NCBI GenBank assembly: GCA_965248265.1
Contig: CBDFJF010000001.1
Location: forward strand, 2,912,001 to 2,976,000
Direction of reading: 5' to 3'
Length of the DNA stretch: 64,000 nt
Origin: Candidatus Latescibacterota bacterium
GTDB taxonomy: Bacteria > Latescibacterota > UBA2968 > UBA8231
Position 1 is the stretch's first letter, and each line of letters opens with the position of its first letter. The translations under genes and the position numbers were made by a program. Positions 2,121-53,343 of this stretch are shown piece after piece. The notes under the pieces are model-generated. The model was not told the DNA's origin. It saw only the letters and a list, made by a program, of their open reading frames with translations, and ran no database searches.

Positions 2121-2127
2121 GAGCGGC

Positions 2128-4152
2128 TCAGTAGCGATAATGGAACACGGGCACGCGGCTGCCGGTGCCACCGGCAAACAAATCCAGGATCATCCAGAAG
2201 CCGGCGCAGGTAATCTGCCCAAGAATCATGCCCAGGAAGAATGGCCGCAACGCCAGGTACAACCGAACCCCTCCGTACTTGAGCAGGGAGGCTTTGATCA
2301 TCGAGCCGAGAAAGATGCTGAACCAGGCTCTGGACGTCACGTTGCTCGCACTCACGGCGAAGCCGAGCGGATGCAGCGGCCACCATAAGAAGTGGTGACG
2401 CAGATAGATCAAAACGCCCATCACCATGCCGCCGATGCTCGTCCACAGCGCCCTCGGCCACATGATGTCGGGAGTACCCGAGAACGACAGGGGGTTCTCT
2501 ATCTTGTAGGCGGCGAAGTCGACGGTGTTGCGGGCGTTGTTGGTGAAGAACCAGGGCTCTAGATTGGCAGCTCCCTCCTGGTAACAGAGCCAGATGATGA
2601 TCCCCAGAGAGCTTACCAGGCTCACCAGCATGGCCACGATCATGACCCAGAACAGGGGCCGTTTCAGAATGCCGACTCCCTGAGCCATCTTCATCCCGTT
2701 GATGGCCGAGGCCATGAGCATGATCCGGACGCTGCCGGCCCAGCTGAAACTGAGAGCCATGCTAAAAATTCCAGCGTCAGTGACTGTAGTCGTTCCGGCG
2801 AAGTTCATGACAATCGTCTGAGCCGACATCTGCGGCTGCATGAAGCCGATCCCACCTTCGGCGACCAGGCGCGCCATGAAGATGAAAATGGCGAAGGCGA
2901 CGATGAAGAACAGGAGGGTGATGATGATGGGGACACCACTCATGTTCAGCCAGATCGTTACATAGATCCCGCAGACGACGAGAATGGCGGCCGCAGCACG
3001 GTAGGAGAGGATCTCCTCACTGTCGTCGACACCGGTCCCGGTAATGACCTTTCGCCAGATCGCTTTGAGGTGGCTGCGGCTGACCCAGGCCCCGAACGCC
3101 ACCAGCACCAGCATGGCCCCCATGCCCTGGTATGCCAGCATGAGGGTCCCTTCCATGAAGCGCTCGATCTCACCCTGGAGGCGGTAGCCGATCAGGTACT
3201 GCCAGCTCATCTGCGCCTTGGCCAGCAGGTGAAAGAACCAGAAGCTGGAGGCCACGTGCAGGCTGAGCAGGTAGGCCAGACCGATCACGGTGAAACTGAG
3301 ATTGATCTCGACGCTCGCCTGCTGGCGGAACAGCTTCGCTCTCGCGTAGAGCTCGGGGTCCGGTACAACAGGGAAGTACTGGTGCAAACCCTTCATGCTC
3401 AGCACGCAAAAAGCCAGCGCGAAGCCCGTCCACATCACCGGGTTTTTGAAGAACGGACCCAGGACCTGGTTGGCCCTGCCGGTCTCGGCCATTTCCAGGG
3501 GCAGCTGAACCAGGGGGAATGCCAGGCGCTCGTGCTCCACCCATTGGCGCCGGATCAGAACCATGCAGGCGATCATCATCAGGTAGATGGCGATGATGAA
3601 GGTACCCCAGGCCAGCATCGGTACCGCCCATGCTACCCACGGTACCGAGCCGCCCACCGGCAACCCCTCGAAGAAGCTCTTGATCGCCTCCTCGTCCTGC
3701 GGCACCATCCATGGCTTGATCAGAGGATAAAGGATGTCCACCCATCTGTTTTCCGGCGACGCGAAGTAATAGACGGCCGGCAGCATGGGGATCAGGTTGG
3801 CCGAGAACCCCCACGTCGGAATCGTCGAGGCGATGATGAGCATGATGTAGATGACGGCCAGCTCGGCGCGGTCGAAGGCCCAGCTCTGGCGGACCAGCCG
3901 CGTGCAGGGATTGAGCAGCACCGTGACGCCGAAGAACACGAATATGGCCCCGGCCGTGATGAAGTCGGAGTTCATGCCGGTCGTTAAGAAAACCACGCGG
4001 GTGTAGGTGAAACCGACGCTGACGATCAGACTCAGCAACGCGCCGGTGATCACCGAGCGGATGGTGATGTGACCGTGCTGAGTACCGGAGGAGCCTGGCG
4101 ATGGAGCAGGTGACGGTGTGGGTGTTGGTGAAGTTGGGGAAGGAGGAGGCAT
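2128..4152 (-). CDS. Large polytopic membrane protein (DUF6785/DUF6784-like putative transporter), paralogue 1
   Basis: 674 aa, collinear with 117-2120 and sharing the same motifs; Pro/Ser/Thr-rich N-terminal tail. Confidence 0.75.
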   Translation of the reverse strand: MPPPSPTSPTPTPSPAPSPGSSGTQHGHITIRSVITGALLSLIVSVGFTYTRVVFLTTGMNSDFITAGAIFVFFGVTVLLNPCTRLVRQSWAFDRAELAVIYIMLIIASTIPTWGFSANLIPMLPAVYYFASPENRWVDILYPLIKPWMVPQDEEAIKSFFEGLPVGGSVPWVAWAVPMLAWGTFIIAIYLMMIACMVLIRRQWVEHERLAFPLVQLPLEMAETGRANQVLGPFFKNPVMWTGFALAFCVLSMKGLHQYFPVVPDPELYARAKLFRQQASVEINLSFTVIGLAYLLSLHVASSFWFFHLLAKAQMSWQYLIGYRLQGEIERFMEGTLMLAYQGMGAMLVLVAFGAWVSRSHLKAIWRKVITGTGVDDSEEILSYRAAAAILVVCGIYVTIWLNMSGVPIIITLLFFIVAFAIFIFMARLVAEGGIGFMQPQMSAQTIVMNFAGTTTVTDAGIFSMALSFSWAGSVRIMLMASAINGMKMAQGVGILKRPLFWVMIVAMLVSLVSSLGIIIWLCYQEGAANLEPWFFTNNARNTVDFAAYKIENPLSFSGTPDIMWPRALWTSIGGMVMGVLIYLRHHFLWWPLHPLGFAVSASNVTSRAWFSIFLGSMIKASLLKYGGVRLYLALRPFFLGMILGQITCAGFWMILDLFAGGTGSRVPVFHYRY

Positions 4153-4300: not shown

Positions 4301-5134
4301 TTGAACCCGATCGACCTGCGTACCCGACTGCGTGATGGCGAACGCTTCCTCCTCGACGGCGGCGTCGGTTCCGAGCTGACACGTCTGGGCCTTGAGCACC
4401 GGCCCGGCGTCATTCACGGTCCGGAGGTGACCCGTAAGGTACATGAGAACTATCTGGGAGCCGGTGTTGATCTACTGACGACAGACACCTTCACCACCAA
4501 CCGCTACGTCCTGCGCCGGTTCGGCCACCCCGAAGAGCGCATGGCCGAGTTCACCCGCCAGGCGGTCGAGATCGCCCGTGAAGCGCGGGATCGAATCAAT
4601 CCGAAGGCGCTGATCGTCGGCAGTATGTCGGGTCCTGGATTCGAGAATATTGAACAGGAGTACGCCGATCAGGCCGAGGCGCTTGTTGCCGGCGGCGTCG
4701 ACATCCTGCAGCCGGAGTACACTTCTTTCATTAACTGCGCTCCGGCCGTGCGCGCTGCATCGCGGAGTGGCTTGCCTGTCTTTCTCGGCGTCCGGCATGT
4801 GACCGAGAAAGGCCTCTTGGACACCGGACACACCATCCAGGAAGTCATCGACTCCCTCGACGGCAACCTGCCCGATGCCATTCTGTTGATGTGCAGCCCA
4901 CCCGAGGCGATCTCAATATCTCTTCCGGTACTGCGACAAGCATTCGATGGCGCGATCGGAGGCTATGCCAACATCCTGCATCGGTGGGATGAACTCACGC
5001 CGGAGCGCTATGCCGAGTTCGGACGCGGATGGATCCGCGACCACGGCGCCCAGATCATGGGTGGGTGTTGCGGCACCCGGCCAGAGCACATCGCCGGCCT
5101 GCGCTCCGTGGTGAATGAGGCTATCCCCGAATGA
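4301..5134 (+). CDS. Homocysteine S-methyltransferase family protein
   Basis: LLDGGVGSEL start, VHENYLGAGVD, Zn ligands LMCS and GGCCGTRPEHI. Confidence 0.88.
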   Translation: MNPIDLRTRLRDGERFLLDGGVGSELTRLGLEHRPGVIHGPEVTRKVHENYLGAGVDLLTTDTFTTNRYVLRRFGHPEERMAEFTRQAVEIAREARDRINPKALIVGSMSGPGFENIEQEYADQAEALVAGGVDILQPEYTSFINCAPAVRAASRSGLPVFLGVRHVTEKGLLDTGHTIQEVIDSLDGNLPDAILLMCSPPEAISISLPVLRQAFDGAIGGYANILHRWDELTPERYAEFGRGWIRDHGAQIMGGCCGTRPEHIAGLRSVVNEAIPE

Positions 5135-5690
5135 AATCGGCGACGGCTTTTCCAAGAACAGCATAGCCTTCATCCGAGAAGTGGACCCCATCCTGGCTCA
5201 GGATCTTCTCGGGCCCCGCCTTCACGACGACGGCGTTGAGATCGTTGATCTCCAGCTCCAGTATCCGCGCCTGGTCGAGCAGGCCCTCGTTGTAGGTGTT
5301 CACATCGACGGCGAAGCGGCGGAAGTCTCCAAGTTCCTCGTGAATACGATTGTGCCACTCTTCGTCCAGCGGTGTCGTTGTCGCCCAGATCAACCGCGCA
5401 TTCGTATCTGTCCTGATGCGCTCCGTGATGGTGCGGATGTTGCGGTAGTAACCCTCGAGTGTGACCTGGTTCGCCGTCGAGCCAAAGGGTCGGCGCAGAT
5501 CATGGAGCCCGACGTTGATGTGGACGACATCCGGGGCGCGTTCGGTGACGCTGTCCAGGTACTCCAGCACCTTCTGGCTGGAGCCGCCGTTTTCGTCCGA
5601 CCCCCACACCTCGGCGAAACCGGTCAGCTCCGCCCGCACGTACTTCTGGTACCCCATGCGGATGGAGTCACCGATCAGGACGACATTCAT
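5121..5690 (-). CDS. SGNH/GDSL hydrolase
   Basis: LIGDSI block I, NVGLHD block III, DGVHF block V. Confidence 0.88.
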   Translation of the reverse strand: MNVVLIGDSIRMGYQKYVRAELTGFAEVWGSDENGGSSQKVLEYLDSVTERAPDVVHINVGLHDLRRPFGSTANQVTLEGYYRNIRTITERIRTDTNARLIWATTTPLDEEWHNRIHEELGDFRRFAVDVNTYNEGLLDQARILELEINDLNAVVVKAGPEKILSQDGVHFSDEGYAVLGKAVADFIRG

Positions 5691-5758
5691 GGTTCAATCT
5701 CCTGGCTTGGGATGCCTTCACAGCATCTCGTATCCGCTGCGAGGTGATGGGCATAGCC

Positions 5759-8071
5759 TCACTCTTCGCCGCTCTGTCCGCCGGCGAAGAAACTCGCTGC
5801 ATCCTGTGTAGTCCGAAACGCCTTCCGGAATGCCCGGGTTTCGTCCAGCAGGACGAGAAGCTTGTCGACGGCAGCGGACGCATCAACCACAGCACACCGC
5901 TCGAACAGGATCTCTCCAACCGCATCGCGCGTCGCCCGTACCCCCATCGCCGGCAGCACCTCCAACCCGGCGACCACCGTGCGCTCGCTGTGCGCCATGG
6001 CGCCGGCCAGTTTCTGCAGGGAGCTGCGACCTTGGTATTCAGCTAGCGTGTATTTCACCAGGCCACCCAACCGCTGCGTAAATGCCTCGTAAGAATCGAC
6101 GCCTTGATCCTTCGCGAACACGTAGATCTCTTCTGGCTTCACCCGCTCCAACACCATAGCGACCTCTCCCCGGCCCGGCGGGGCGCTCCAGACTACCAGT
6201 GTGCTACCTGTCGTCAACTCCGCTCGCGGCTTCGCCCTTTCGTGCTCAACTGCTTCACCCCAGATCTGCGGGTCTGCGGTTTCAGCAATAATCTCATCCA
6301 GCTTCTCGAGCGGGGCTGACTCCGCTCTGAAATCGTAGACAACGGCCTTTGTCCCCGCACTCTCCCCACCTTCCGCTCTTCCCGACCGCTCAAAGTCCTG
6401 CAAGGTGATCGACAGCGTCTGTTTCCCGCGGAAGAAACCGGGTCGCACGCGCACGACCATGTCCAAGCGTCCGTTTGGCAGGGCTTCATCGGCGCTGCTC
6501 CACCACAGGACCTCGCACTTGTGTCCGGCAAGGTCGCTGACGACCAGTTTTCGATGGGCCTTGTCCTTGCCGATCGGCCGGTCCTCTTCTACTTGCAGGC
6601 CAGGGCAGAGGATGTTGACGGGGGGATTCCCGGGGCCGAACGGCGCCAGCGCTTCCAACTGCAGGGCGGTGTCGAGGGTCAGCTCCTCCAGCGGCAGCTC
6701 GAGCTCGATGTCGACGGTCGGCTCCGGCGTTCGGCCCGTGCGCTGATCGATGAGGGCTTTTGACACACCGCGTCGGAACGCCTCGACGTTCCCCGCATCC
6801 AGCGATAACCCGGCTGCCATCGGATGGCCCCCGAAGCCCATCAGGATGTCGGATTGAGTCGCGATAGCTCGAGTGATGTGATAGCCCTCGACCGAGCGCG
6901 CCGATCCGCGTGCCGGTTTACCCTCCGGCGTCGTCAGCATGATCGTTGGTTTGCCGAACTCCTCCACCAGGCGACTGGCGACGATGCCGATGACACCCTC
7001 GTGCCACAGCGGATTGGCCAACACAAGAGCAGCGTACTGCCGCAGAGAAGGCTCCTGCTGCACCTGCGCCGCGGCCGAATCGTAGACGACGGAGGTCTCG
7101 AACTTGCGCTCTTCATTCAGACGCTCGAGCTGGTCGGCGATCTCCTTTGCCTGCGCTTCGTCCGTCGTCGTCAGCAGCGGTACCGAGACGTTGGCATCCG
7201 ACAACCGGCCGACCGCGTTGAGCCTCGGGCCAATCTGGAAACCGATGTCCTCGTCGTTGAGCAGATCCATTTTGACTCCGGCGTTGTCGGCCAGAGCCAG
7301 AAAACCGGGTCGCTCCGTCGAACGCAACACCTCCAGGCCGCGCTGCAGCAGGTAGCGGGTATCCCGTCGTTGGAGTGCCAGGTCTGCGACGATGCCGACC
7401 GCCACCAGGTCCAGGCAGCTCTCCAGCTCAACCGCGCGTCCGGCGCGCGTGAACAGCGCTTCGATGATCTTGTAAGCCACGCCTACGCCGGGAAGACCAC
7501 TCAATGGGTCATCTTCGGCATGGAACTTCGGATTGATCAGGGCGAAAGCCTTGGGCAACTCGTCAGGCAGGTCATGGTGGTCCGTTATTACGACATCGAT
7601 GCCGGCCTCGTGGGCAAAGGCGACGCTATCGACGGCGGCAATCCCGGTATCGCATGTGACCAGCAGGTCGAAACCCTTTTCGATGTAGCGCTGCAGGACC
7701 TGCGGCTGCACACCGTGCGACTCGTGCTGGCGGACCGGAATGTGGTAGGAAACATTACCCCCAATCCGCTCCAGCATGGAAACAAGCAATGACGTCGACG
7801 TCTGCCCGTCGACATCGAAATCACCCCAGACCAGAATGCGCTCGTTGTTGCGGATCGCCCGTTCGATCCGTTCGACACCGATCACCAGGTCGTGCAAGGT
7901 CTCTGGAGCGGCAGGGGTGTAGGCATCCGGATCCAGAAACGGCCGCACCTGTTCGGGGTCATCCATGCCGCGACCGGCCAGGACCTGCGCCACCAGTGGC
8001 CGGCCCGAAGTCGCATCGAGCAAAGACTGCGAGACCTCGGCGGCCCGGATGGGATTCCACTTGAGGTTCAT
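5759..8071 (-). CDS. recJ: ssDNA-specific exonuclease RecJ with long C-terminal extension
   Basis: GDFDVDG, TCDTG, ITDHH, GPRLNAVGRL, GSARS, GGHPMAAG, LAPFGPGNP. Confidence 0.95.
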   Translation of the reverse strand: MNLKWNPIRAAEVSQSLLDATSGRPLVAQVLAGRGMDDPEQVRPFLDPDAYTPAAPETLHDLVIGVERIERAIRNNERILVWGDFDVDGQTSTSLLVSMLERIGGNVSYHIPVRQHESHGVQPQVLQRYIEKGFDLLVTCDTGIAAVDSVAFAHEAGIDVVITDHHDLPDELPKAFALINPKFHAEDDPLSGLPGVGVAYKIIEALFTRAGRAVELESCLDLVAVGIVADLALQRRDTRYLLQRGLEVLRSTERPGFLALADNAGVKMDLLNDEDIGFQIGPRLNAVGRLSDANVSVPLLTTTDEAQAKEIADQLERLNEERKFETSVVYDSAAAQVQQEPSLRQYAALVLANPLWHEGVIGIVASRLVEEFGKPTIMLTTPEGKPARGSARSVEGYHITRAIATQSDILMGFGGHPMAAGLSLDAGNVEAFRRGVSKALIDQRTGRTPEPTVDIELELPLEELTLDTALQLEALAPFGPGNPPVNILCPGLQVEEDRPIGKDKAHRKLVVSDLAGHKCEVLWWSSADEALPNGRLDMVVRVRPGFFRGKQTLSITLQDFERSGRAEGGESAGTKAVVYDFRAESAPLEKLDEIIAETADPQIWGEAVEHERAKPRAELTTGSTLVVWSAPPGRGEVAMVLERVKPEEIYVFAKDQGVDSYEAFTQRLGGLVKYTLAEYQGRSSLQKLAGAMAHSERTVVAGLEVLPAMGVRATRDAVGEILFERCAVVDASAAVDKLLVLLDETRAFRKAFRTTQDAASFFAGGQSGEE

Positions 8072-8101
8072 GAGGGGTGGATGCGCTTCAGGTGAGGGTG
8101 C

Positions 8102-8944
8102 TCAAAACGCGATCGCTTCGTAGTCATCGAGATCCCCCAACTGCGAAGGCGCTTCCTCTTCGCTTTCGAGATCACCGTCGTCCAGGTACCCCGCCACACC
8201 CCCTCGGTCACAGAAGGAGCGGTACACGCAGAACATGCACTTCTTCTCATCCGTCGTGAGCCCGAACGAGCCCCGCTCGCGACTCAGGATCTCGTCGACC
8301 AGGCCACCCAGGTAGGCCTCGTCCTGGCCATACTGCTCCTCATTGTAGGCAAAGACCTCCGGATCATCCGGAAAATCCGAGTACCAGTAGACCATCTCGA
8401 TTTCGTCCGGCGTCAGCGGCTTGCCATCGGCGAGTGCTGCTCCCGCCTGAAGCAACAGGTAGGGATAGATCCGCGTCTGCAGTCGATCCGTCAGCCATTC
8501 TCTAGTGTGTCTGCGACGCCAGGTCTTCCAGTCAAAGATGCGGGCGCGGCGCATGTCTTCTGCATCACCATTGCCGATGACGATCAGATCACACGTCGCC
8601 ACTAGCGTGCTGACGCCGATGGTCCCAACCAGCGTCTTCTCGGCGAACCGCTCTCCATCGACATCAGCCGGCCGCTGCACCATATAACTGTTCCACCAGC
8701 GCGAGATATCGGCATCCTTGGCGGAATCAGGCACCGGCACCGAAATGCCCAACACGTCACGGTGAACCATTTCGTGGAAGCGGCGACCATCGACCATGTG
8801 GCGCTCGCTCTGCAGCAGCGGCTCGCTTTCCACCGCCGGCCACTTGAGCTCTTCGAGGTAGCTCAGTTCATAGCGGCGGGCGCAGTCGACGTAGGCCTGC
8901 AGGCTGTGGGCGCTGAAGGAGAGTTGTTTATCCGTCACTATCAC
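8102..8944 (-). CDS. Stand-alone PD-(D/E)XK (RecB/AddB-type) nuclease with Fe-S staple cysteines
   Basis: FSAHSLQAYVDC, CDLIV, IFDWKT, LQTRIY, CMFCVYRSFC; GTG start (8944 or 8938) overlaps the helicase stop. Confidence 0.85.
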   Translation of the reverse strand: MIVTDKQLSFSAHSLQAYVDCARRYELSYLEELKWPAVESEPLLQSERHMVDGRRFHEMVHRDVLGISVPVPDSAKDADISRWWNSYMVQRPADVDGERFAEKTLVGTIGVSTLVATCDLIVIGNGDAEDMRRARIFDWKTWRRRHTREWLTDRLQTRIYPYLLLQAGAALADGKPLTPDEIEMVYWYSDFPDDPEVFAYNEEQYGQDEAYLGGLVDEILSRERGSFGLTTDEKKCMFCVYRSFCDRGGVAGYLDDGDLESEEEAPSQLGDLDDYEAIAF

Positions 8945-11207
8945 GTGCCCCCCCCATCGAATCCCGCAGCGCCACAAAAGCGAGCGCCGGCTTGTTGCTC
9001 CCGCGGGGCCCGACATTGCTCGTCACCATCAGCTCCTTGCGCGCCCGCGTGATCCCTACGTAGAGCAACCGCAACCGCTCGCGTGCATAGTCATACCGCG
9101 CCTCCATTGTCGCCGAGCCCTCCAGGTACTCCGTACCATCTATGGCTGCATCGAGCTGGCCCAGGGTTTCGTCTGCCAGACTGAGATTATCCCTCACGAA
9201 CCAGCGCTCCGACCGGAAGCTGTCCGTCGGCTCGCCCGCGGGGAATTCATAGTCACTCACTGCCAGCAGGTAGACGCGGTCCCACTCCAGGCCCTTGGCC
9301 CCATGCATGGTCGCCACCACCACTTCGCCCTTGTGGGCCTCCGGCTCGAAGCCGGTCTTGTCGGTCTCGATCGAGCGCAGTTTGCGCTGGTCGCGGGCGA
9401 TGACGACGAGCTCGGCCTCCATCTCCGCCAGCGTCGTCGGCCGGCCTTCGACACCCAGGTTGTACTGCGAGCGCTCCTGCAGGATTTCCCCGAACAGCTG
9501 CGTCATCGCCAGCTTCTCCGGCTCGTCGAACAGATCCTGAGCGATCGCCGTGAGCAGCTCCCCGATCGGCAGCAGCACCAGGGCGTGCCAGCGCTGCAGC
9601 TGCTCGCGGAAGCGCTCGAAGTAGGACATCGTGCTCGCCGGAATCTCGCCCGTGCCCAGACCAGCACTCGATCCTTCTTCCCCTCCAGCCAGCGGCCAGA
9701 CGAACTCCTCGCTACGGACGCATCGCTGCAACAGCGTCAGATGTATTTCCAGCAGTTCCAGCCCCTCGTCCGATTCGGCTTCCTTCAACACCCGCGTGAA
9801 CCAGACCTTGTACACGGCGACCAGAGTCCGGTGGGCATCCGGATGCGCCAGGTGCTTGAGAATCAGGCTGAGAGCACCGGCCGCTTCCCGCGTCGACGTC
9901 GTCAGGCGCAACATCGCATCCGTACACGGCACCCGTGCCTTGCGCAGGATTTTGATCACTTCGGCCCCGCGCGCGTTCGTCGGCACCAGGATGGCGACGG
10001 TTGCGTCCCCATTGGCCGGCAGCCATTTCTTGATCGATTCCACGACCCGGACCAGCTCCGCCTCCGGTGATTCGTCGTTGAAATGGAAGGCCACTCTGCA
10101 GGCATCCTCCGGAGGATTGGGTTGCGGATCGCCCGGCGGCGTCGGTTCGATGTTGGGCAAGGAGAGCGCGCTGCGCATTGCTTCGACGGGGTGATCCTCA
10201 CTCGCCCAGCGGATCAGCTCGTTGGCCATGCCGATGATGGGCAACCCCGAGCGTCCTGAATTGGGTAGATCGTGCTTGGCGTCGGCTTCTTCCAGAAAGG
10301 CGCGCAGGTACTTCGGGTGCGCGGTGGTGAAGGTCTCGTAGATCGCCTGGTTGGGATCGCCAACGCGGACCCAGTTGCCGCCCTCGCCCACCAACCGGCG
10401 CAGAATCTGCTCCTGCAGGGCGCTGCTGTCCTGGGCTTCGTCTTCGAGAATGAAGGGCCAGCGCTGGCGCAGGTTCTCGACCAGGGTCTCATCAGCGTCG
10501 AGGGCGCGAATCGCCATCGTGATCAGGTCGTTGAAGTCGAGGGATGCCCGCGTTGCCAGACCGTGCTCGTAGCGCTCGTACACATCCACCGCCAGCTTGA
10601 TCAGCATGGAACTGTCATCCGTGAGCCGATCGCGTACGGCCTGCGGCGTCTGCTGGCGGCTCTTGAGGTGCGCGATGGCGTTGCCGACGACCTGTTGCAG
10701 CAGTGCGGGCAGATCGTCGGTGACAATCTTGCGCCGCCGGAAATCGTTCATGTCTTCAATCAGGTAGCGCGCCAGACCCTCTTTGTATCGCGGGTAGGAA
10801 GCGCGAAACGCCGTGCGCAGAATCGAGTCGGCGATACGCTCGTCGACGACGGAGAAGTTGGTCTCCAGTCCTACAATCGACGGCGACTGCGACACGATCT
10901 CGTGCGCCAGGCTGTGCAGGGTGCGCACCCGGTAACCCAGACCGGGGAGCAGACCCTGCTCGGAGAGAAACCCACCAATGCGCTGGCGGAAGTTGTCGAC
11001 GGCCGAATTGACCAGCGTCACGATCAGGACTTCCTGCCGGCCCTGCAGCGCCCCACTGGAGATCAGGGATACAGCGACCTGCGACAGGGTCCAGGTTTTA
11101 CCGCTGCCCGGCACCGCGGCGATGCCCATGGTGCCGCCGGCGTAGCCGAGGATGGCTTGCTGGGCGGGGCGCAGCTGGGTTGGGGAATGAGGCGAGGGTG
11201 ATGTCAC
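8928..11207 (-). CDS. UvrD/PcrA-like SF1A ATP-dependent DNA helicase
   Basis: AVPGSGKT, TLHSLA, EDEAQD, VGDPNQAIY, TMHGAKGLEWD, ERLRLLYVGITRAR. Confidence 0.93.
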   Translation of the reverse strand: MTSPSPHSPTQLRPAQQAILGYAGGTMGIAAVPGSGKTWTLSQVAVSLISSGALQGRQEVLIVTLVNSAVDNFRQRIGGFLSEQGLLPGLGYRVRTLHSLAHEIVSQSPSIVGLETNFSVVDERIADSILRTAFRASYPRYKEGLARYLIEDMNDFRRRKIVTDDLPALLQQVVGNAIAHLKSRQQTPQAVRDRLTDDSSMLIKLAVDVYERYEHGLATRASLDFNDLITMAIRALDADETLVENLRQRWPFILEDEAQDSSALQEQILRRLVGEGGNWVRVGDPNQAIYETFTTAHPKYLRAFLEEADAKHDLPNSGRSGLPIIGMANELIRWASEDHPVEAMRSALSLPNIEPTPPGDPQPNPPEDACRVAFHFNDESPEAELVRVVESIKKWLPANGDATVAILVPTNARGAEVIKILRKARVPCTDAMLRLTTSTREAAGALSLILKHLAHPDAHRTLVAVYKVWFTRVLKEAESDEGLELLEIHLTLLQRCVRSEEFVWPLAGGEEGSSAGLGTGEIPASTMSYFERFREQLQRWHALVLLPIGELLTAIAQDLFDEPEKLAMTQLFGEILQERSQYNLGVEGRPTTLAEMEAELVVIARDQRKLRSIETDKTGFEPEAHKGEVVVATMHGAKGLEWDRVYLLAVSDYEFPAGEPTDSFRSERWFVRDNLSLADETLGQLDAAIDGTEYLEGSATMEARYDYARERLRLLYVGITRARKELMVTSNVGPRGSNKPALAFVALRDSMGGARDSDG

Positions 11208-11278
11208 AGAGCCAGTTGCTTCCTGATCAACTGACAGAGGCTATCCTTGATCTCGTTGTGCCTTGGAACCGAGGCACG
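11204..11278 (-). pseudogene. HicA toxin C-terminal remnant
   Basis: Reads RASVPRHNEIKDSLCQLIRKQLAL*, matching the HicA VPRHxEI...KQL C-terminus; no start or N-terminal half; directly downstream of hicB. Confidence 0.75.
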
Positions 11279-11282
11279 GCGA

Positions 11283-11492
11283 TTACAGTTCCAGAGACAC
11301 CGATTTTGTGCTGACCGAGACGATGTCAGGTGGTGTATCTTCATCGGCCAACACGAGCCGGTAGGAATTCTGGATGTTCTGTTCGAGCTCATCCAGCGTC
11401 TCTCCCTGGCTGAAAACACCCGGCACTTCCTTCAACCGCCCGATGTACCAATCATCCTCAATCCAGTACTCAAGCGTAAACTGCCGTGACAT
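11283..11492 (-). CDS. HicB-family antitoxin
   Basis: FTLEYW...YIGRLKEVPGVFSQGETLDELEQNI. Confidence 0.9.
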   Translation of the reverse strand: MSRQFTLEYWIEDDWYIGRLKEVPGVFSQGETLDELEQNIQNSYRLVLADEDTPPDIVSVSTKSVSLEL

Positions 11493-11497
11493 GAGAC

Positions 11498-11770
11498 TCA
11501 GCTTAGTCGCTCGTTGGCTGCGGTGGACGCAGCGACAGTCGGCCGGCTTTCCAGGTAAAGTGTGTCATAGCTCAAATCAACTCCGCTTGGCCATTCCACT
11601 GAACCGGCCACGACCCTTGCCGCCTGGAAGCTCGCCTCGTTCTGCAGACGGACGAAGACTCCTCGGTTGAGATAAGGCGTCAAGTCGAATATCCGTTGTT
11701 CGCCGTTTTCGAAGACTAGCTCCAGCTGGTAATCGTTCAGCGGGTGTACGAGTCTCACGTGTGGATTCAC
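11498..11770 (-). CDS. DUF2442 protein (putative antitoxin)
   Basis: YQLELVFENGEQRIFDLTPYL...VEWPSGVDLSYDTLY. Confidence 0.85.
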   Translation of the reverse strand: MNPHVRLVHPLNDYQLELVFENGEQRIFDLTPYLNRGVFVRLQNEASFQAARVVAGSVEWPSGVDLSYDTLYLESRPTVAASTAANERLS

Positions 11771-11838
11771 AGGTGCTGCCTGTCATCAAAAAAATACATC
11801 CTGATCACAATACCATAAAACGTCGACAGAATCGGCAT
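11767..11838 (-). pseudogene. DUF4160 (putative toxin) N-terminal stub
   Basis: MPILSTFYGIVIRMYFFDDRQHL* (23 aa), a typical DUF4160 N-terminus that stops before the PHxH motif; stop overlaps the DUF2442 start. Confidence 0.8.
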
Positions 11839-11851
11839 TGGTACTTGCCAC

Positions 11852-11929
11852 TCAATGTACGGCTGTGAATGGGCAGATGCTAAGCGGTCTCACCCCGGCA
11901 CCCGGACAAAAATCAACGAGTGTGTTCAT
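11852..11929 (-). pseudogene. Possible VapC/PIN toxin stub
   Basis: ATG overlapping the RHH antitoxin 3' end reads MNTLVD (like the PIN beta-1 start), then unrelated sequence and a stop after 25 aa. Confidence 0.4.
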
Positions 11930-12176
11930 CCGACAGCGCCTCGCCCAAGTGCCAGTCATGTTCGACAGCGCCAGAGGTGTCCAGACTCTCACCGAGGCCG
12001 ACGATGGACATGAAGACGTCCCTGGTGAATTGCTGCTGCTCGGTGTCACCAGCCAGATAGTCGGCGACAAGCCCGCGCACCAACTCAGCCATCGAGACAT
12101 TCTTCCTGCCTGCCGCGAGTTTGAGCCTGCGATGGTCGGCGGGATCGAGATAGATCTGCAGTCGCACATAGCCCAT
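11913..12176 (-). CDS. Ribbon-helix-helix (CopG/VapB-like) antitoxin
   Basis: RLQIYLD...VSMAELVRGLV RHH domain; C-terminal SIVGLG...EHD as in VapB-type antitoxins. Confidence 0.8.
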   Translation of the reverse strand: MGYVRLQIYLDPADHRRLKLAAGRKNVSMAELVRGLVADYLAGDTEQQQFTRDVFMSIVGLGESLDTSGAVEHDWHLGEALSDEHTR

Positions 12177-12186
12177 GGCGCATCTC

Positions 12187-12462
12187 CTACCCGTACCGCT
12201 CCACGTACAGATCCAGCACACGCCGCACCATCTGCTGATAGGGCATCCCGTGCTTTGATGAGTTGCGCTTGAAGAACTCGACGCTTCGCTGGCTCAGATT
12301 GAGCGTCACCTTCACGGTTTCTTCCTTCAAGAAGAGTTGCTCCGGCGGCGGGAGGAAATCCTCAACAGTTTCCGCTTCGTCGATTGCTCTGGCGATTTCG
12401 AGGGGAGCTGCTACGTATTTCGCTCGCGCCTCACGTACTCGAGTCGTCTTTTTGGCCATCAT
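12187..12462 (-). CDS. BrnA/CopG-family antitoxin
   Basis: DFLPPPEQL, VKVTLNLS...VEFFK, PYQQMVRRVLDLY; overlaps brnT. Confidence 0.85.
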   Translation of the reverse strand: MMAKKTTRVREARAKYVAAPLEIARAIDEAETVEDFLPPPEQLFLKEETVKVTLNLSQRSVEFFKRNSSKHGMPYQQMVRRVLDLYVERYG

Positions 12463-12718
12463 ACCTTCTCCTTCCTTCGCGCCAGTACCCGGCCCCGAAA
12501 ATCCTGATCCGATTTGCCCGCATCGTGAAACGGACCGTCAGCACCCTTTCATCCACCAGACCGAAACAGAAGTACCGAGACTCCTTTGCAGTCGAGTGCT
12601 TGCGATCTCTGGCAATTACCCGGGCGGGATCTAGAAATGCTCGTTGTGCCTCTGCGAAGGACACACCATGCTTGCGCACGTTTTCCGCATCCTTCTGGTC
12701 GTCCCATTCGAAGTCCAT
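12431..12718 (-). CDS. BrnT-family ribonuclease toxin
   Basis: FEWDDQKDAENVRKHGVSFAEA...LTVRFT...IRIFGAGYWR. Confidence 0.9.
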   Translation of the reverse strand: MDFEWDDQKDAENVRKHGVSFAEAQRAFLDPARVIARDRKHSTAKESRYFCFGLVDERVLTVRFTMRANRIRIFGAGYWREGRRRYDGQKDDSST

Positions 12719-12721
12719 GCC

Positions 12722-12749
12722 GTATGTATATGTGGATGTCTATACATAC
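12722..12749. promoter_or_regulatory. Inverted repeat, probable brnTA operator
   Basis: GTATGTATA-N10-TATACATAC perfect 9-bp inverted repeat immediately upstream of the brnT ATG. Confidence 0.6.
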
Positions 12750-12802
12750 AAATATACAGAGACGAGTAGGGACGGCAAGCCCGCCGCGCGTCATCCCCAC
12801 GG

Positions 12803-14923
12803 TCACACTTCATACACCCCCTCAGCCTCCGGCACCACCCCCAACCCCCGCAACGCATGCCCAAGCGCCACCAGCAGATCCCCCGTCTGCTCCTGCCCAT
12901 GCGCGCTGAGTTCGCTATTAAACAGGTACACCGAGTCCGTGCAGCGCCTCACCAACCCCGAAACCATGCACGTAAGCCTCTCCGTCTCGAACTTCGCCTC
13001 CCAGGCCGATGACCATTCCTCCTCCTGGGTGTTCCAGTCACGGCTGAGCACGTAGGGGTTGGTCAGGGGTTGATGGATGCGCCGGTGCCAGGCCGGCGAT
13101 CCCACATCCAGCCACAGCTGATGGGCGTAGGTGCGATTGCGCAGCAGGAAGGTGTGCGCCGGCGCGATCAGGACTGAAGTCGATGGATCCGCCCAGTTCA
13201 TCGAGTAGAACGCGGAGACGACGCCCTCCTGCACCATCTCGACGTAGGCTTTGCCGACGGCTTCACCCTCGTCCCCCGAGGCCTCGGCCACGGCGCGCCG
13301 GAATTTCTGCGCCGATTCGACCAGACTGGCCACCTGCATGCCGGCCGGCACGTCCTTGTGGAACCCGAAGCCGGGCTGGCTCAGCACCTCGCCGAACAAG
13401 CGGCTGAAGAACAGGTCGACGGGCAGATCCTCCTCGCTCTGATATTCCTCCAGCCAGGATCGCAGGACCTCGTAGCTCTCTCCCACGCGATAGGTGATTC
13501 GGTCGCGCGCTTGTGACGCTATTTCTTCGAATGACTTCAAACCGACTGCTTCATGCACTCCCTCGTACGCGACGGAGGCCAGCAGCGCCGCGCGCACCAG
13601 GTCCGCCGCACCAAGGAGCCGGTCGAACATGTGGGTGACCGCCTCCGGCGACGGCCGTTCCAGCCGCCATGACGGGTGCGCGAGCGCGGCCAGGGTCAGC
13701 AGCACCTTGGTGACCGGCTCGTCCCGCAGGGTCCGCGAGGGACGATGCACGTAATGGCTGATCTGCGCCGTGTCGAGACGCGTCGACAGGCCATAGTAGA
13801 GACTGTCGTTGAGGAACGGAGAGATGATGGCGATCTGAGCCGGCTCAATGCCGTTCTCGATCAGCTGCTCGACCTGACCCGTGACCCGCTGCACCATCTG
13901 GTGATGCAGCCGGTCGGAGAACACCTGCACGCGCCGCTTGTCGTCATTGTCAACATCACTGACTGCCCCGGCATCCGGTCGATCGCCAATCGCATCGCAC
14001 AACCTGCGCCCGAATACCTGCAGCGACTCCGGTACCGTTGCTGTCGATTCGATCAACTGACTGGCCGCGCACTCCTGCTTCAGCGTGTAGGCACTCAATG
14101 GATTGGCCGCGAGGAATTTTCGGAAGCCGGCATCACAGTCGTAGAGGATGAGGACGGATTCCAGTCGAGAATCGTCGTGGTTCATCCACAGGCGCACGAT
14201 GTCATGCGCCAGCGGAATGTCCTCCTCGCAATTGTCGTAGACGAGATGACGGTGCTGTCCGAACAGGTAATCGCGCAACGGCTGCGAGTGCCGGACCAGA
14301 TCCCAGAACAGGGTCAAATACAGCGAGAAGTCGAGCAGGTTGCCCTGCGCGCACAGTTGCCGGTAGGCCGCCACGGTGTTCGAGATCTCCTCGACGTGAC
14401 CGTCCGAAAGCTCGGTGCCGATCCTTGCTGAGCGCAGATAATCGCTCAACGCATCCAGGGGGATATAGTTGACGGCCGCCTTGTTGAGATTGTCCAGCAG
14501 CTGCGAGTAGAGCCGGTGCCGCGTCAGCTTCAGGTCGGCGAAGTACCCCTGTTCTATTAGAGGGGACACCAGCCGCGCCATGAAGTACTGGGCCACTTCG
14601 TAGGTCAGGAAGGTCGGCTCCTGTCCCTGCACGAAAGGATACTTCGACTGCGCCAGCACCTCCGGCCAGAACAGGGAGACATAGCGACGTGCCAGGCCTC
14701 CGATCGTCGCTTTGCCGAGGCCGTACCACGAGCGCTGATCGAAGGCTTCTTCGTAGGCGAGGGTGTAGCTGCGGTGGGGGGTGAGGAGGAGGATCCGGTC
14801 GGGCGCGACGCCATCGTCGATGAGGGAGCGGATGCGCTCGATGGCCTGCGTGGTTTTGCCGGCGCCGGCGGGGCCTTCGAGGAAGAGGGTCGGTTGGGTA
14901 TCGGGAGTCACCGCGGCCCACAT
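12803..14923 (-). CDS. SF1 helicase-like protein with degenerate Walker B (AdnA/AddB-like partner subunit)
   Basis: Walker A EGPAGAGKT and GVAPDRILLLT present; motif II reads VYDNCEED; later motifs eroded; no nuclease domain. Confidence 0.75.
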   Translation of the reverse strand: MWAAVTPDTQPTLFLEGPAGAGKTTQAIERIRSLIDDGVAPDRILLLTPHRSYTLAYEEAFDQRSWYGLGKATIGGLARRYVSLFWPEVLAQSKYPFVQGQEPTFLTYEVAQYFMARLVSPLIEQGYFADLKLTRHRLYSQLLDNLNKAAVNYIPLDALSDYLRSARIGTELSDGHVEEISNTVAAYRQLCAQGNLLDFSLYLTLFWDLVRHSQPLRDYLFGQHRHLVYDNCEEDIPLAHDIVRLWMNHDDSRLESVLILYDCDAGFRKFLAANPLSAYTLKQECAASQLIESTATVPESLQVFGRRLCDAIGDRPDAGAVSDVDNDDKRRVQVFSDRLHHQMVQRVTGQVEQLIENGIEPAQIAIISPFLNDSLYYGLSTRLDTAQISHYVHRPSRTLRDEPVTKVLLTLAALAHPSWRLERPSPEAVTHMFDRLLGAADLVRAALLASVAYEGVHEAVGLKSFEEIASQARDRITYRVGESYEVLRSWLEEYQSEEDLPVDLFFSRLFGEVLSQPGFGFHKDVPAGMQVASLVESAQKFRRAVAEASGDEGEAVGKAYVEMVQEGVVSAFYSMNWADPSTSVLIAPAHTFLLRNRTYAHQLWLDVGSPAWHRRIHQPLTNPYVLSRDWNTQEEEWSSAWEAKFETERLTCMVSGLVRRCTDSVYLFNSELSAHGQEQTGDLLVALGHALRGLGVVPEAEGVYEV

Positions 14924-15300
14924 CAGGCAGCGCCATCCCTCTCGTCCAGCACCGCTTCCAGCATGACGAGGGCATCCCAGGCGGCGGGAAAACCGGCGTA
15001 GGCGGCAACCTGGAACAGGGCTTCGAAGATCTCCGGCAGCGAGGCGCCGTTGTTGAGGGCCATTTCGAGATTGAGCTTCAGGGCGTTGTCACGACCGAGG
15101 GCAGCCAGGACACAGATGCTGCAGAGCGAGCGTGTTTTCAGATCGATGCCGGGCCGGGTCCAGATGCGACCGCCGACGACGGTGACGACTTCGGTCTCGA
15201 AATCGGGACAGACGGACTTGAAGCGTTGGAGCAGAGCGTCGATGCGGTCGTCGCCGACCATCTTTCGGAATTGGGCTAGTCCGCGGTCGTAGTCGGTCAT
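14923..15300 (-). CDS. Carboxymuconolactone decarboxylase/AhpD family protein
   Basis: GRIWTRPGIDLKTRSL, ALNNGAS, AAYAGFPAA; stop overlaps the next ATG. Confidence 0.88.
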   Translation of the reverse strand: MTDYDRGLAQFRKMVGDDRIDALLQRFKSVCPDFETEVVTVVGGRIWTRPGIDLKTRSLCSICVLAALGRDNALKLNLEMALNNGASLPEIFEALFQVAAYAGFPAAWDALVMLEAVLDERDGAA

Positions 15301-15436
15301 GGCGCCGATGATATGGGTGATCATCAACCATATCAAGCGTATCGGTAAACGTCGGGCCTGTTACCACCTCAAGTCAACGGACAGCTTACCTCAAGTGTGG
15401 AGATCAAATCACATCGACCAGTGAAGTGAGACCTGT

Positions 15437-15560
15437 AGAGTACGCAGCGATGAGCGGCTGGCGCTGACCCGTCCACCAGACTGCGTGGGACAGTGAAGGT
15501 GCGTTGGTGTCCCCAGATGGCCACGATCCCCTGCCCAGTCCGCTCCATGGCATGTTATGC
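15437..15560 (-). mobile_element. Integron attC site with degenerate R'
   Basis: Minus strand: R'' GCATAAC, 5 nt, L'' ATGGAGCGGACTGG ... CCAGCCGCTCAT L', 6 nt, GTACTCT; arms pair with extrahelical G and A. Confidence 0.7.
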
Positions 15561-15661
15561 CTTCCCTGATTGTCAGTCAGCAACTCGTGTCGTAGTCGCA
15601 CGAGGCTGATCTATGGGGATGCCCGGCGAAATGTAGCTGGCATAACACAGGGACGGTCCAT

Positions 15662-16741
15662 TCACGCCGGCCAATTTGCTCGGGTGGCCTTCTTAATCTC
15701 GTCTGATAGGTCGAGGTGATCATCGCTGAGAATGATATACTGGTGCTCAGCCAAGCGTCTCAGGAGGTCCGTGAGGTCCTCTTCCGGATTGAGGACCCCG
15801 TTGTCTTGCATCCACTTGAGATGCCGGACGATCGATGGTCGCGACGCGTCACCTTGCCCCTTCTTCACATGGATGGTGCCGATCACAGAGATGGCGGACG
15901 GATCGTCCCTAAGCTTCTCGATGAACTGAGCGCGCATACGGATCTGATCTGATATACGTACCCGGTCATCAGCCAATCGACACAGCTCATCGAGACTCTG
16001 GAGTACAACACTCACGGAGCTACGCCCGAACGCAGCGGCCACCCCAGCGGAGTATGAGGCCATTTGTGGATCAGCCGATGCGTCGCTCTCCACCGCACGG
16101 TCTTGATACACAACGATGCGATCGAAGGCATTGTATACGCGCGTCAGACAGACCAGCGCTTTCTCATCTTTCATCGAGGCAGCTAGCTGCCCCATGAGAT
16201 GTCTACGCCCTGCCTGCGAGATACTCGCCTTACTTCTGCTGCCAATCGCGTGGAGTTCGGTGATGTAGCATAGTCGATCGAGATCGTCAATGGCCTCACC
16301 GACCAGAGTATCTAGTATTGCCTTGCTGGCCTTCTTGCGAGATCTCTCGTTGAGTGCGTTTGCGAGAGCAACCGCACCCAATGCGCCGACAAGTCCAGCA
16401 ATGGTTCCCAGGATGGCCAATATGCCAGAGTGTTCCTCCCACCAACTCTTCTCTAAGGCGGCTTCTATTCCCCGCAGGCGAGCTTCGATACGGTCGACTG
16501 ACGATCCTGAGCCTTCTGCATCTCTGGACATGCTGTCTGTAGCTGTCTCGCGCGCTGATCCCTGAACCACAGTAGCGGGTGGGACGCTCGCGCTGGACGC
16601 ATTGGCGTGACCTGCCTGCAACATGAGTGAGAGCAGAGCCAGGATTGTCAGCCAGCATACCTGAGAGTGCAGGCAGTTGAACCGGGCTTCTACTGCCACT
16701 GGACACGCTCCCCCAATGATCTCATTTCTCCCCTCGCACAA
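15662..16741 (-). CDS. Hypothetical membrane-anchored protein (gene cassette); true start uncertain
   Basis: Long ORF with signal-like and transmembrane segments, starting at an attC R'; the ORF-track start lies inside the attC. Confidence 0.55.
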   Translation of the reverse strand: MCEGRNEIIGGACPVAVEARFNCLHSQVCWLTILALLSLMLQAGHANASSASVPPATVVQGSARETATDSMSRDAEGSGSSVDRIEARLRGIEAALEKSWWEEHSGILAILGTIAGLVGALGAVALANALNERSRKKASKAILDTLVGEAIDDLDRLCYITELHAIGSRSKASISQAGRRHLMGQLAASMKDEKALVCLTRVYNAFDRIVVYQDRAVESDASADPQMASYSAGVAAAFGRSSVSVVLQSLDELCRLADDRVRISDQIRMRAQFIEKLRDDPSAISVIGTIHVKKGQGDASRPSIVRHLKWMQDNGVLNPEEDLTDLLRRLAEHQYIILSDDHLDLSDEIKKATRANWPA

Positions 16742-16878: not shown

Positions 16879-17205
16879 TCACTGTCGTCGGCCCAGCCAT
16901 CGTATCTGCTGCTTCACTCTGGTGCAGGGGGCACCCAAGCTTGACTCAAGGTTGCCCGATGTGTGCGGCTGGTATGTGGCCATTGTCACTCCCGCAAGGT
17001 CGGACGGTAGGCGAATCGCAGACGTTCTGTCGAACACCGCGAAGGTCCGTTCTCTTCCGAGCGATCCCATGAACAGGCCAAGCTCAAACAACACATTGTC
17101 CCTTGCGGCGTGCCCCAATTCGCCACGACTCTCGAGCAGGTCATCAGGCGTCAGCACGAGCACTGCGAAGTCATACGCCCCCAAGCTCTGAACAAGGGAC
17201 TCCAG
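16879..17205 (-). pseudogene. TIR-like nucleotide-binding domain protein (Cap12/Pycsar-effector type), 5' truncated by IS3
   Basis: LESLVQSL..YDFAVLVLTPDD...ARDNVLFELGLFMGSLGRERTF...LPSDLAGVT; frame runs directly into the IS end at 17206. Confidence 0.85.
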
Positions 17206-17235
17206 TGAATCGCCCCGGGTTTTTCGGAGACTCGG

Positions 17236-18467
<1,232 letters not shown>

Positions 18468-18591
18468 GACTCCAATCCTCTCAAGAAATGGAGCCTCCGG
18501 CACAACGTATATACGTTTTCCCCTCCGAATCATGACTCAGATCAAAAAAGAATCTATGATCCCCGCATGCCTCCGAAACTCCTCGATCTCC

Positions 18592-31709: not shown

Positions 31710-32083
31710 TTATATCGAGACGTATCCCTGCCGCGTTGACCACAGCCCCTTAGCGGCCACCCGGTCTCCGCTTATTCTTTCCCAGTAGCGTGCGTACGAT
31801 TCCACCTGCACGCCGTGGCGCGACGTGTCTACTGCCTCCGTTTTGTAGTCGACGATCTTCCAGCCTCCGTCTGCCACCCGGAAGACGAGGTCGATGACTG
31901 CTCTTCCGCGTGATTCGACGGGGTGACGGCACGCAGATTCGCCCAGTCACAACCGGCCAGGGCGAGCGCCGTCGTCATGTTGTACCCGGCTTGTATGCTG
32001 GGCACGAACAGGATCTTGGGAGCTATCGGGTGGGACCTGCAGAGCGAGCGGAGTTGGGCAAGGTGGTGAGGTAGGGGGGCCAT
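31710..32083 (-). pseudogene. Deletion scar: AddB-like N-terminus joined to AddA/RecB nuclease C-terminus
   Basis: MAPLPHHLAQLRSLCRSHPIAPKILFVPS...WANLRAVTP; then in another frame AVIDLVFRVADGGWKIVDYKT...QVESYARYWERISG...GLW...* ending at 31710. Confidence 0.75.
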
Positions 32084-42701: not shown

Positions 42702-42775
42702 TGGCTGCCCCCCAGGGATTCGAACCCCGATAACATGATCCAGAGTCATGTGTCCTACCATTGGACGAGAGGGCA
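42702..42775 (-). tRNA. tRNA-Gln(CTG)
   Basis: Cloverleaf; anticodon arm CATGA-CTCTGGA-TCATG; GTTCGAATC; CCA end. Confidence 0.95.
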
Positions 42776-42781
42776 GTAAAG

Positions 42782-42874
<93 letters not shown>

Positions 42875-42896
42875 CATAAGACAGCTCCTTCACATT

Positions 42897-42984
42897 TGGC
42901 GGAGGGCGAGGGACTCGAACCCTCAAGGGTGATTAACCCGGCGGTTTTCAAGACCGCTGCCTTACCAATTAGGACTAGCCCTCC
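42897..42984 (-). tRNA. tRNA-Ser(TGA)
   Basis: GCGGT-CTTGAAA-ACCGC anticodon arm, variable arm, GCCA end. Confidence 0.93.
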
Positions 42985-45641: not shown

Positions 45642-47690
<2,049 letters not shown>

Positions 47691-48044: not shown

Positions 48045-48046
48045 CC

Positions 48047-49144: not shown

Positions 49145-49156
49145 GCGGATGCATCA

Positions 49157-52473: not shown

Positions 52474-52514
52474 TGTGAATTCGACGTAGGTGTAATGAGG
52501 GGAGAGGGGGCTGG

Positions 52515-52543
52515 ATGTTAGCGAACACGAGTGCTTCCGTCAA
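52515..52543 (-). promoter_or_regulatory. Putative sigma70 promoter for dnaA
   Basis: TTGACG-N17-TAACAT on the minus strand. Confidence 0.6.
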
Positions 52544-52623
52544 GACTTCACCTGAGGAAATTTTGAGTTTATGGTATGGACCCGCACAACTGGAGAAACC
52601 AACCCGCGCACCGGACCGATTGA

Positions 52624-53338: not shown

Positions 53339-53343
53339 ATCAC

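Follow-up and report, generated by a model that had tools for sequence, protein, structure and literature searches.

How are broken DNA ends prepared for recombination in bacteria that carry none of the established end-resection enzymes? To our knowledge, three architectures (RecBCD, AddAB and AdnAB) are known for starting recombinational break repair in bacteria, and whole lineages lack all three. The question is raised by a 64,000-nucleotide (nt) stretch of the genome of a Candidatus Latescibacterota bacterium (GenBank assembly GCA_965248265.1, contig CBDFJF010000001.1, forward-strand positions 2,912,001 to 2,976,000), the whole of which we refer to as the window. Between positions 5,759 and 14,923 of the window lie four genes that were originally predicted, from the sequence alone, to encode a split AdnAB- or AddAB-like resection system consisting of a degenerate helicase, an active UvrD, a free iron–sulfur (Fe–S) nuclease and RecJ. 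Following up this prediction, we consider it reasonably probable that the first three genes encode one AddAB-like helicase–nuclease for DNA ends, built from three separate chains.

All four genes are present and co-directional on the minus strand, and the translations and the Pfam and NCBIfam matches bear out the motifs that had been ascribed to their products. Gene 1 (12803–14923; 706 amino acids (aa)) encodes a degenerate, UvrD-like member of helicase superfamily 1A (SF1A), gene 2 (8928–11207; 759 aa) a UvrD-type SF1A helicase, gene 3 (8102–8944; 280 aa) a Cas4-family PD-(D/E)XK nuclease, and gene 4 (5759–8071; 770 aa) the long form of RecJ. The gene 3 frame is open upstream to an ATG at 9016 (open reading frame (ORF) 8102–9016, 304 aa), but homologues and the sequence itself make the GTG at 8944 the likelier start, and residues of the gene 3 protein are numbered from there. 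With this start the nuclease gene overlaps the end of gene 2 by 17 nt, and recJ begins 30 nt after the gene 3 stop codon; both the overlap and the short spacing had been noticed. Long ORFs with family matches, in an order kept in dozens of other species, place the four-gene set far beyond a product of chance. A promoter and terminator scan of positions 5000–16000 returned counts near the shuffled expectation.

The gene 1 protein has only a weak match to the UvrD-helicase N-terminal domain (PF00580, 27 bits) and no match to any NCBIfam family. It retains a Walker A motif (GPAGAGKTT) and, as had been noticed, carries DNCEED at the Walker B position (in the context YDNCEEDIP). Profile–profile alignment with hhalign shows the gene 1 and gene 2 families to be homologous (93.8%, E 1.8e-7), pairs GPAGAGKTT with the Walker A motif of gene 2 and sets D230–N231 opposite the D–E of DEAQD. 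In this alignment the magnesium-binding aspartate is kept, N231 occupies the position of the catalytic glutamate, and motif III is degenerate. In an alignment of 60 family sequences, K23, E233, E234 and D235 never vary, and conservation of D230 and N231 is 90% or higher; dozens of residues are invariant overall, and the columns average 50% identity. Because it is so strongly conserved, the protein is not decaying. Its residues suggest that it should bind nucleotide and magnesium without hydrolysis, and AddB is described in the same terms, with Walker A and the aspartate kept and the catalytic residues lost (PMC3321194).

The AlphaFold2 model of the gene 1 protein (predicted local distance difference test (pLDDT) 89.5, predicted template-modelling score 0.87) has a complete four-domain SF1A fold. 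In Foldseek comparisons of this model, AdnB (9np6_B) gave the highest query TM-score (0.68, root mean square deviation (rmsd) 8.3 Å) and AddB (3u4q_B) the lowest rmsd (7.4 Å, query TM-score 0.64); UvrD structures reached query TM-scores of 0.55–0.58 at about 12 Å. The family is large, with 620 clusters (50% identity) at E 1e-30 or better, and is unfused to a nuclease, because 149 of its 150 best representatives are at most 774 aa long. Among ten lower-ranked representatives, those with a taxonomic name are Chloroflexota. In a 1,419-aa protein (P0246), the last 390 residues correspond to the gene 1 profile's C-terminal half (E 1e-135), and Pfam recognizes nothing in the first 1,000; this protein may represent another kind of fusion or an assembly join. 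We propose that the gene 1 protein is a scaffold subunit of the AddB, AdnA or RecC kind.

The gene 2 protein looks like a working motor. It matches PF00580 at 147 bits and UvrD_C at 66.6 bits, and its translation contains the UvrD motifs it was said to have, including Walker A, DEAQD, GDPNQAIY and VGITRA. Pfam finds only helicase domains in its 759 aa, with no C-terminal RecB-type nuclease, and 63 homologues, selected for at least 90% coverage and a length of 700–830 aa, are helicase-sized too. It stays far below the cut-offs of the NCBIfam models for pcrA (125 bits against 911), rep (122 against 951), uvrD (96 against 1144) and recB (106 against 696), and does not reach that of addA_Gpos (64.6 against 707.65). 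Its closest sequence matches in the Protein Data Bank (PDB) are UvrD1, Rep and PcrA, with AddA at E 6e-7 and RecB at E 4e-6. We propose that this protein is the 3′–5′ motor subunit. Domain content, protein lengths and family sizes together uphold the proposal that neither helicase-like protein carries a nuclease and that the one nuclease is separate.

That nuclease, the gene 3 protein, matches PDDEXK_1 (PF12705) at 69.7 bits (cut-off 22) and no NCBIfam model. In an alignment of 35 sequences, C21, C236, C239, C245, D119, W139, K140, Q156 and Y160 are invariant and D138 is at least 90% conserved; the cysteine staple of the original prediction, an N-terminal cysteine plus CxxCxxxxxC, is thus found in 35 of 35 homologues. 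The protein thereby satisfies the signature of the Cas4 family and PDDEXK_1, a D...(D/E)xK...QxxxY core with one N-terminal and three C-terminal cysteines. Its nearest solved relative is the Argonaute-associated Cas4-family nuclease ACE1 (9iac_A; PDB profile search, E 6e-4), and the nuclease region of AdnB was matched non-significantly.

An acidic C-terminal tail that ends in an aromatic residue is conserved in the gene 3 family (DLDDYEAIAF here; consensus DFEQIAEIEF in 35 homologues). The RecJ of Deinococcus radiodurans binds the C terminus of SSB, the protein that binds single-stranded DNA (PMC4846377). We considered the gene 3 tail as a mimic of the SSB tail that docks on the C-terminal region of RecJ, and set the idea aside; one relative (G091) keeps a similar tail and has only a short RecJ. 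Open frames of 1,097–1,099 aa in one genus suggested a fusion of genes 2 and 3, and this candidate was also discarded; the two genes sit in different frames, and the fusion is only apparent, produced by stop-to-stop frames in high-GC DNA.

The gene 1 protein is the predicted docking partner of this separate nuclease. When the gene 1 protein was co-modelled with the gene 3 protein (986 residues), ipSAE came to 0.80, 0.81 and 0.81, with 0.00 for the best-scoring of three controls; the mark reached here is attained by 58 of 80 solved complexes and by 2 of 110 mismatched pairs. At least 65% of contacts recur between the runs, and the pLDDT of the partners is at least 79. Residues 267–270 of gene 3, just before the acidic tail, contact the gene 1 protein in the model. 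The co-models thus predict that the nuclease binds the degenerate helicase.

Gene order gives a second line of evidence. Relatives were searched in one genome per species, and the best 80 loci were kept from the matched stretches, 547 of 587 of which encode a gene 1 relative. The kept loci are mostly from Anaerolineae, with some from Latescibacterota, Gemmatimonadota and Rhodothermales. Co-conservation in other genomes had been named as a check on the prediction: among the 51 kept loci for which 8 kb or more of DNA beyond gene 1 was available, gene 2 is found after gene 1 in 50, gene 3 lies downstream in 40 and recJ in 33. All four genes occur in the same order in 40 kept loci, with median gaps of 59.5, 48 and 96 nt. 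These counts are lower bounds, because gene 3 of the closest relative (locus L002) falls just past the end of the examined DNA; in some genomes gene 3 or recJ is distant from the gene 1–gene 2 pair.

Proteins in which the first two genes are joined argue most directly for a common machine. A search with the gene 1 alignment recovered 14 proteins of 1,274–1,361 aa that fuse gene 1 and gene 2 in gene order; a search with the single gene 1 sequence had found no fused form. The first 620–650 residues of the fusions cover the full length of the gene 1 profile, what follows corresponds to the gene 2 profile, and an intact Walker A motif and EDEAQDSS are present in the second half of all six that were checked. 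A nuclease is absent from all 14. These fusions are the best evidence that both helicase-like proteins work as one body.

An alternative explanation is that these are co-located repair genes whose products act separately and form no stable machine. The UvrD paralogue and RecJ would then resect ends or gaps in the manner of the RecF-pathway proteins RecQ and RecJ, trimming of ends would fall to the Cas4-type nuclease on its own, and the gene 1 protein would serve as a regulator or represent a duplicate that has decayed. The strong conservation of gene 1, the 14 fusions, the predicted binding of gene 3 to gene 1 (0.81 against 0.00) and the near-constant succession of genes 1 and 2 (50 of 51 loci) all speak against this, and we regard it as unlikely. 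It does account for the closeness of the gene 2 protein to UvrD, PcrA and Rep, for the genomes in which gene 3 or recJ lies at a distance, for a predicted interface that is not enriched in conserved residues, and for the unrelated genes that are inserted between genes 1 and 2.

In the window such an insertion separates the two helicase genes. The original prediction described four co-directional genes; the genes are real, and a 1.6-kb island of small genes between genes 1 and 2 was overlooked. Five small co-directional genes of toxin–antitoxin type fill positions 11283–12718, all on the minus strand: a BrnT toxin (12431–12718; Pfam BrnT_toxin, 80.9 bits), a BrnA/CopG-like gene (12187–12462), a ribbon–helix–helix gene (11913–12221), a DUF2442 gene (11498–11770; 50.7 bits in Pfam) and a HicB/UPF0150-like gene (11283–11492). 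The Pfam matches of the BrnA/CopG-like, ribbon–helix–helix and HicB/UPF0150-like genes lie below the curated cut-off. An Rfam scan of positions 11000–13000 found no match. The island is a local insertion, because it is absent from L002, where genes 1 and 2 are only 6 nt apart, and it is not part of the proposed machine. A 22-codon remnant at about 11770–11835, between the DUF2442 and ribbon–helix–helix genes, resembles what we take to be the start of a DUF4160 protein. At its other end, gene 1 shares its first base with the last base of a carboxymuconolactone-decarboxylase-family gene (14923–15336, minus strand), and because of this 1-nt overlap it may here be translationally coupled to that unrelated upstream gene.

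Several findings weigh against a single AddAB-like machine, and the gene 1–gene 2 junction supplies the first. Unrelated genes lie between genes 1 and 2 in 18 related loci in which both are on the same strand, as well as in the window, so tight co-translation is not required. Co-directional inserts occur at this junction in loci L032, L077, L021, L024, L081, L035, L037, L079 and L070; the inserted genes in relatives include an M14 carboxypeptidase (three loci), a member of the chloramphenicol acetyltransferase family (two loci), a flavin oxidoreductase, DUF7309/DUF6930 and a fusion of a major facilitator superfamily domain with spermidine synthase. The junction seems to tolerate or attract insertions. 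Judged by sequence, neither helicase-like protein falls in AddA, AddB or RecB. The best Foldseek E-value of the gene 1 model is to UvrD (3e-21) rather than AddB, and the gene 1 profile, run against PDB sequences, retrieved UvrD and PcrA only (E about 2e-5) and never AddB, AdnA or RecC. The gene 1–gene 3 co-model may have passed through likeness to AddB or AdnA, because the helicase-like and nuclease parts share one chain there. Conservation is also not raised at the predicted interface, at 0.52 against 0.50 for the rest of gene 1 and 0.33 against 0.43 for the rest of gene 3.

The place of RecJ has likewise to be revised. As a protein it is unambiguous: it scores 494.8 bits on TIGR00644 (equivalog cut-off 396.9) and has DHH, DHHA1 and RecJ_OB domains, with invariant DHH residues, followed by a C-terminal region of about 200 aa. 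All 34 aligned module-linked RecJs are long (763–807 aa). The AlphaFold2 model (pLDDT 91.2) finds its best Foldseek match in Staphylococcus aureus RecJ (8y30_A; E 3.8e-54, query TM-score 0.67, 780 columns) and also matches the D. radiodurans RecJ fold. The C-terminal region, considered as a new domain, was ruled out as such because the entire model aligns with S. aureus RecJ, which makes it the known long-RecJ type; a protein atlas points the region to ssDNA-exonuc_C, and PF10141 has no match in the home genome at E up to 1. A second, short recJ (36% identical) lies on contig 2 of that genome. Long RecJ is co-encoded with the module here and in most Anaerolineae. The view that RecJ is a constant fourth component did not survive the comparison, which counts among the findings against the predicted machine: five module-bearing relatives, in three genera, have only a short, unlinked RecJ, and recJ is missing from the examined DNA of 18 of the 51 loci. 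RecJ is facultative in the module.

Does the home genome contain another enzyme that could do the work? Its PF00580 genes, in an assembly that is 92% complete, are gene 1, gene 2, UvrD, and HelIV-like, RecD2-like and Upf1-like genes, and the canonical UvrD/PcrA gene, on contig 2, is separate from gene 2. Searches with the PF00580 and PDDEXK_1 profiles found no RecB, AddA or Adn-type fused helicase–nuclease in this assembly, and addB_Gpos had no match in it. Its PDDEXK_1 genes are gene 3 and a gene for a DinG-like protein, plus one sub-threshold frame. The latter, a 78-aa frame with a weak PDDEXK_1 match (19.4 bits) at about 31713–31904 on the minus strand (genome C1:2943713–2943904), may be a nuclease remnant. 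Outside the window, at C1:3099326–3101737, an 803-aa protein has an N-terminal PDDEXK_1-like segment; the remainder, judged by eye from the translation, presumably is a DinG/Rad3-type helicase.

Relatives give a less tidy picture. Gene 1 is present in 38 of 121 genomes sampled from the same phylum. For at least 23 of these 38, the matches listed include a strong one to PDDEXK_1 (E 1.4e-32 or better) that lies within a frame of at least 880 aa, a length that can be inflated in high-GC DNA. One coexisting pair was checked, in genome G109, and consists of AddB-like and AddA-like proteins. Matches to addB_Gpos (E 1e-10 or better) occur in 9 of 38 gene 1-positive genomes against 38 of 83 gene 1-negative ones, an inverse trend that, the genomes being related, amounts to a weak tendency at most. 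The expected anti-correlation with addAB was therefore not seen, and because many genomes carry both the module and AddAB-like genes, it is not simply a replacement for AddAB; this, too, tells against our interpretation. Large PDDEXK_1 frames occur in two of the five module-bearing Anaerolineae checked and are absent from the other three.

Coexistence with AddAB-like pairs suggests a non-overlapping job, and UvrD-clade helicases act at forks and gaps. A complex of these proteins might accordingly have gaps, cross-link intermediates or forks that have stalled or reversed as its substrates, with the dead subunit reading DNA structure rather than a Chi-like sequence. The sequences carry no sign of fork-specific domains, and the home genome and three of the five Anaerolineae show no other candidate end-resection helicase–nuclease, so that we consider this role very unlikely.

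We therefore return to the three-chain helicase–nuclease for DNA ends, for which we hypothesize a mechanism whose details we hold with less confidence than the machine itself. The gene 2 protein would be the only ATP-hydrolysing motor, tracking 3′–5′ on the 3′ strand of a broken duplex, and we infer that it joins the other two proteins in a complex. The gene 1 protein would trail it as a scaffold that binds ATP without hydrolysing it, in the role of AddB, AdnA or RecC. The gene 3 protein would supply in trans the Fe–S nuclease that is fused C-terminally in AddB and AdnA; together with the gene 1 protein it would form the 5′ channel and cut the displaced 5′ strand at the fork. Where RecJ is present, it may digest the 5′ strand or its fragments processively, perhaps through a physical link to the machine. 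Because no subunit has a nuclease for the 3′ strand, cutting would be confined to the 5′ strand and the expected product is a long 3′ single-stranded tail whose formation Chi would not control.

A replication-origin neighbourhood spans positions 45642–56469 of the window, with gyrB (45642–47627), a recF-like gene (48047–49144), dnaN (49157–50320) and dnaA (50968–52473) on the minus strand, followed by yidC and mnmE, which lie on the plus strand; at about 50–52 kb the sign of the GC skew switches and GC content falls to 0.52. The module lies about 36 kb from dnaA. Elsewhere in the window, an IS3-family element (17151–18533) carries an ALIL frameshift pseudoknot (18073–18189, 101 bits) between a small ORF (18150–18533) and an rve integrase ORF (17236–18150), two tandem paralogues of about 680 aa with DUF6785 and DUF6784 each occupy positions 117–4152 on the minus strand, and a cluster of three tRNA genes lies at 42705–42984 on the minus strand.

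The module might instead serve mainly to restrict or degrade incoming linear or plasmid DNA, as a housekeeping barrier in the manner of exonuclease V and perhaps feeding guides to Argonaute, with repair as a lesser role. This explanation overlaps with an end-processing machine, as RecBCD does both. An analogy comes from Synechococcus elongatus, in which the loss of a Cas4-like nuclease, a UvrD paralogue, recJcy or a PD-(D/E)XK protein each leads to more plasmid transfer or maintenance and natural transformation (PMC10653904). The S. elongatus genes are likened to the module by kind of part and not by homology. Cyanobacteria mostly lack RecBCD and AddAB (PMC12094033), and a protein atlas offers a 734-aa cyanobacterial cluster as a look-alike of the gene 1 protein (score 0.99, with 224 of 256 features in common), which we treat as a lead only. 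The Argonaute association of ACE1, the nearest solved relative of gene 3, and the toxin–antitoxin island inside the operon would also fit. PADLOC gives no specific match, however: genes 1 and 2 draw only generic UvrD-type matches (GajB, RTasHel), and gene 3 and recJ none. A gene order kept across several phyla, at a site about 36 kb from dnaA, is also unlike a defence island. A primary role as a DNA barrier thus seems improbable to us.

Two published gene sets come close to the proposed end-processing machine in their parts. By description, the cas4, uvrD, recJcy and Synpcc7942_0992 genes of S. elongatus are parts of the same kinds that share one phenotype; unlike the module, they come with no complex or dead helicase in the portion of the account considered here (PMC10653904). 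In Clostridiales, and nearest to the module among published descriptions, an operon of unfused UvrD and Cas4-like proteins has been noted and a repair role suggested (Hudaiberdiev et al. 2017, PMC5704561); again compared by description, the consulted part of that source names no degenerate second helicase and no RecJ. We found no description of the module itself in the literature, supplements not covered, which agrees with its having been put forward as uncharacterised.

These considerations allow a broader proposal, which we offer tentatively as possible rather than probable: that the module is a fourth design of bacterial break-resection enzyme beside RecBCD, AddAB and AdnAB. It would consist of three chains, or of two in the case of a gene 1–gene 2 fusion, would have one Fe–S nuclease, acting in trans, would cut only the 5′ strand, free of Chi, and hand that strand to RecJ, and would be the main end processor of Anaerolineae and of some Latescibacterota and Gemmatimonadota, possibly also lying behind the cyanobacterial cas4/uvrD/recJcy phenotype. 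The module is common, a gene 1 relative being encoded in 547 stretches at one genome per species, and is the sole candidate helicase–nuclease in the home genome. If the proposal is true, a 5′-strand nuclease alone makes recombinogenic 3′ tails without a Chi-type switch, RecJ has a natural example of being wired into a resection machine, and phyla without RecBCD or AddAB gain a candidate source of DNA ends and Argonaute guides.

How close, then, is the module to the known enzymes? With AddAB of the Bacillus subtilis type (PDB 3U44, 3U4Q and 4CEJ) it shares an active and a degenerate UvrD-like subunit, the dead one encoded first; a dead subunit that retains Walker A and the magnesium-binding aspartate and has lost the catalytic residues; and an Fe–S PD-(D/E)XK nuclease linked to that subunit, here by predicted binding. 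It differs in that its motor has no nuclease, whereas AddA carries a C-terminal RecB-type one, and in that its Fe–S nuclease stands as a protein of its own, with its gene behind that of the motor, whereas AddB has its Fe–S nuclease fused. The module also does not reach the addA and addB sequence models, and RecJ is often co-encoded with it.

With AdnAB of mycobacteria (PDB 6PPJ, 6PPR and 9NP6) the module shares the pairing of a motor-like subunit with a lead motor. The Fe–S nuclease of the motor-like AdnAB subunit is placed at the Y-junction, where it cuts the displaced 5′ strand, and cutting of the 3′ strand falls to the nuclease that the lead motor carries (PMC13000450); AddAB divides strand cutting in the same way (PMC3321194). 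Both Adn subunits carry a fused nuclease, in contrast to the module, which has a single unfused nuclease as its sole carrier of the four cysteines. AdnB, unlike any part of the module, also cuts the 3′ strand, and the likeness in sequence is only at the level of the UvrD superfamily.

With RecBCD the module has in common one nuclease per machine and, in RecC, a dead, helicase-like subunit that guides strands; RecC itself ends in an inactive nuclease-like domain. Unlike RecBCD, it has no RecD-type second motor, as it includes no SF1B gene (a RecD2-like gene lies elsewhere in the genome), its nuclease is not tethered to the motor, and the recB model is not reached. In E. coli recD mutants RecBC acts together with RecJ: the helicase leaves the 3′ strand intact, and RecJ, working behind it, takes away the 5′ strand. 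The role proposed for RecJ in the module matches this picture. The original prediction is thus partly supported: the evidence supports a module that works like AddAB or AdnAB, and does not support its membership of AddAB, AdnAB or RecBCD, because the fused nucleases that define those enzymes are missing and their sequence models are not reached. The likeness of the module to AddAB and AdnAB is one of design.

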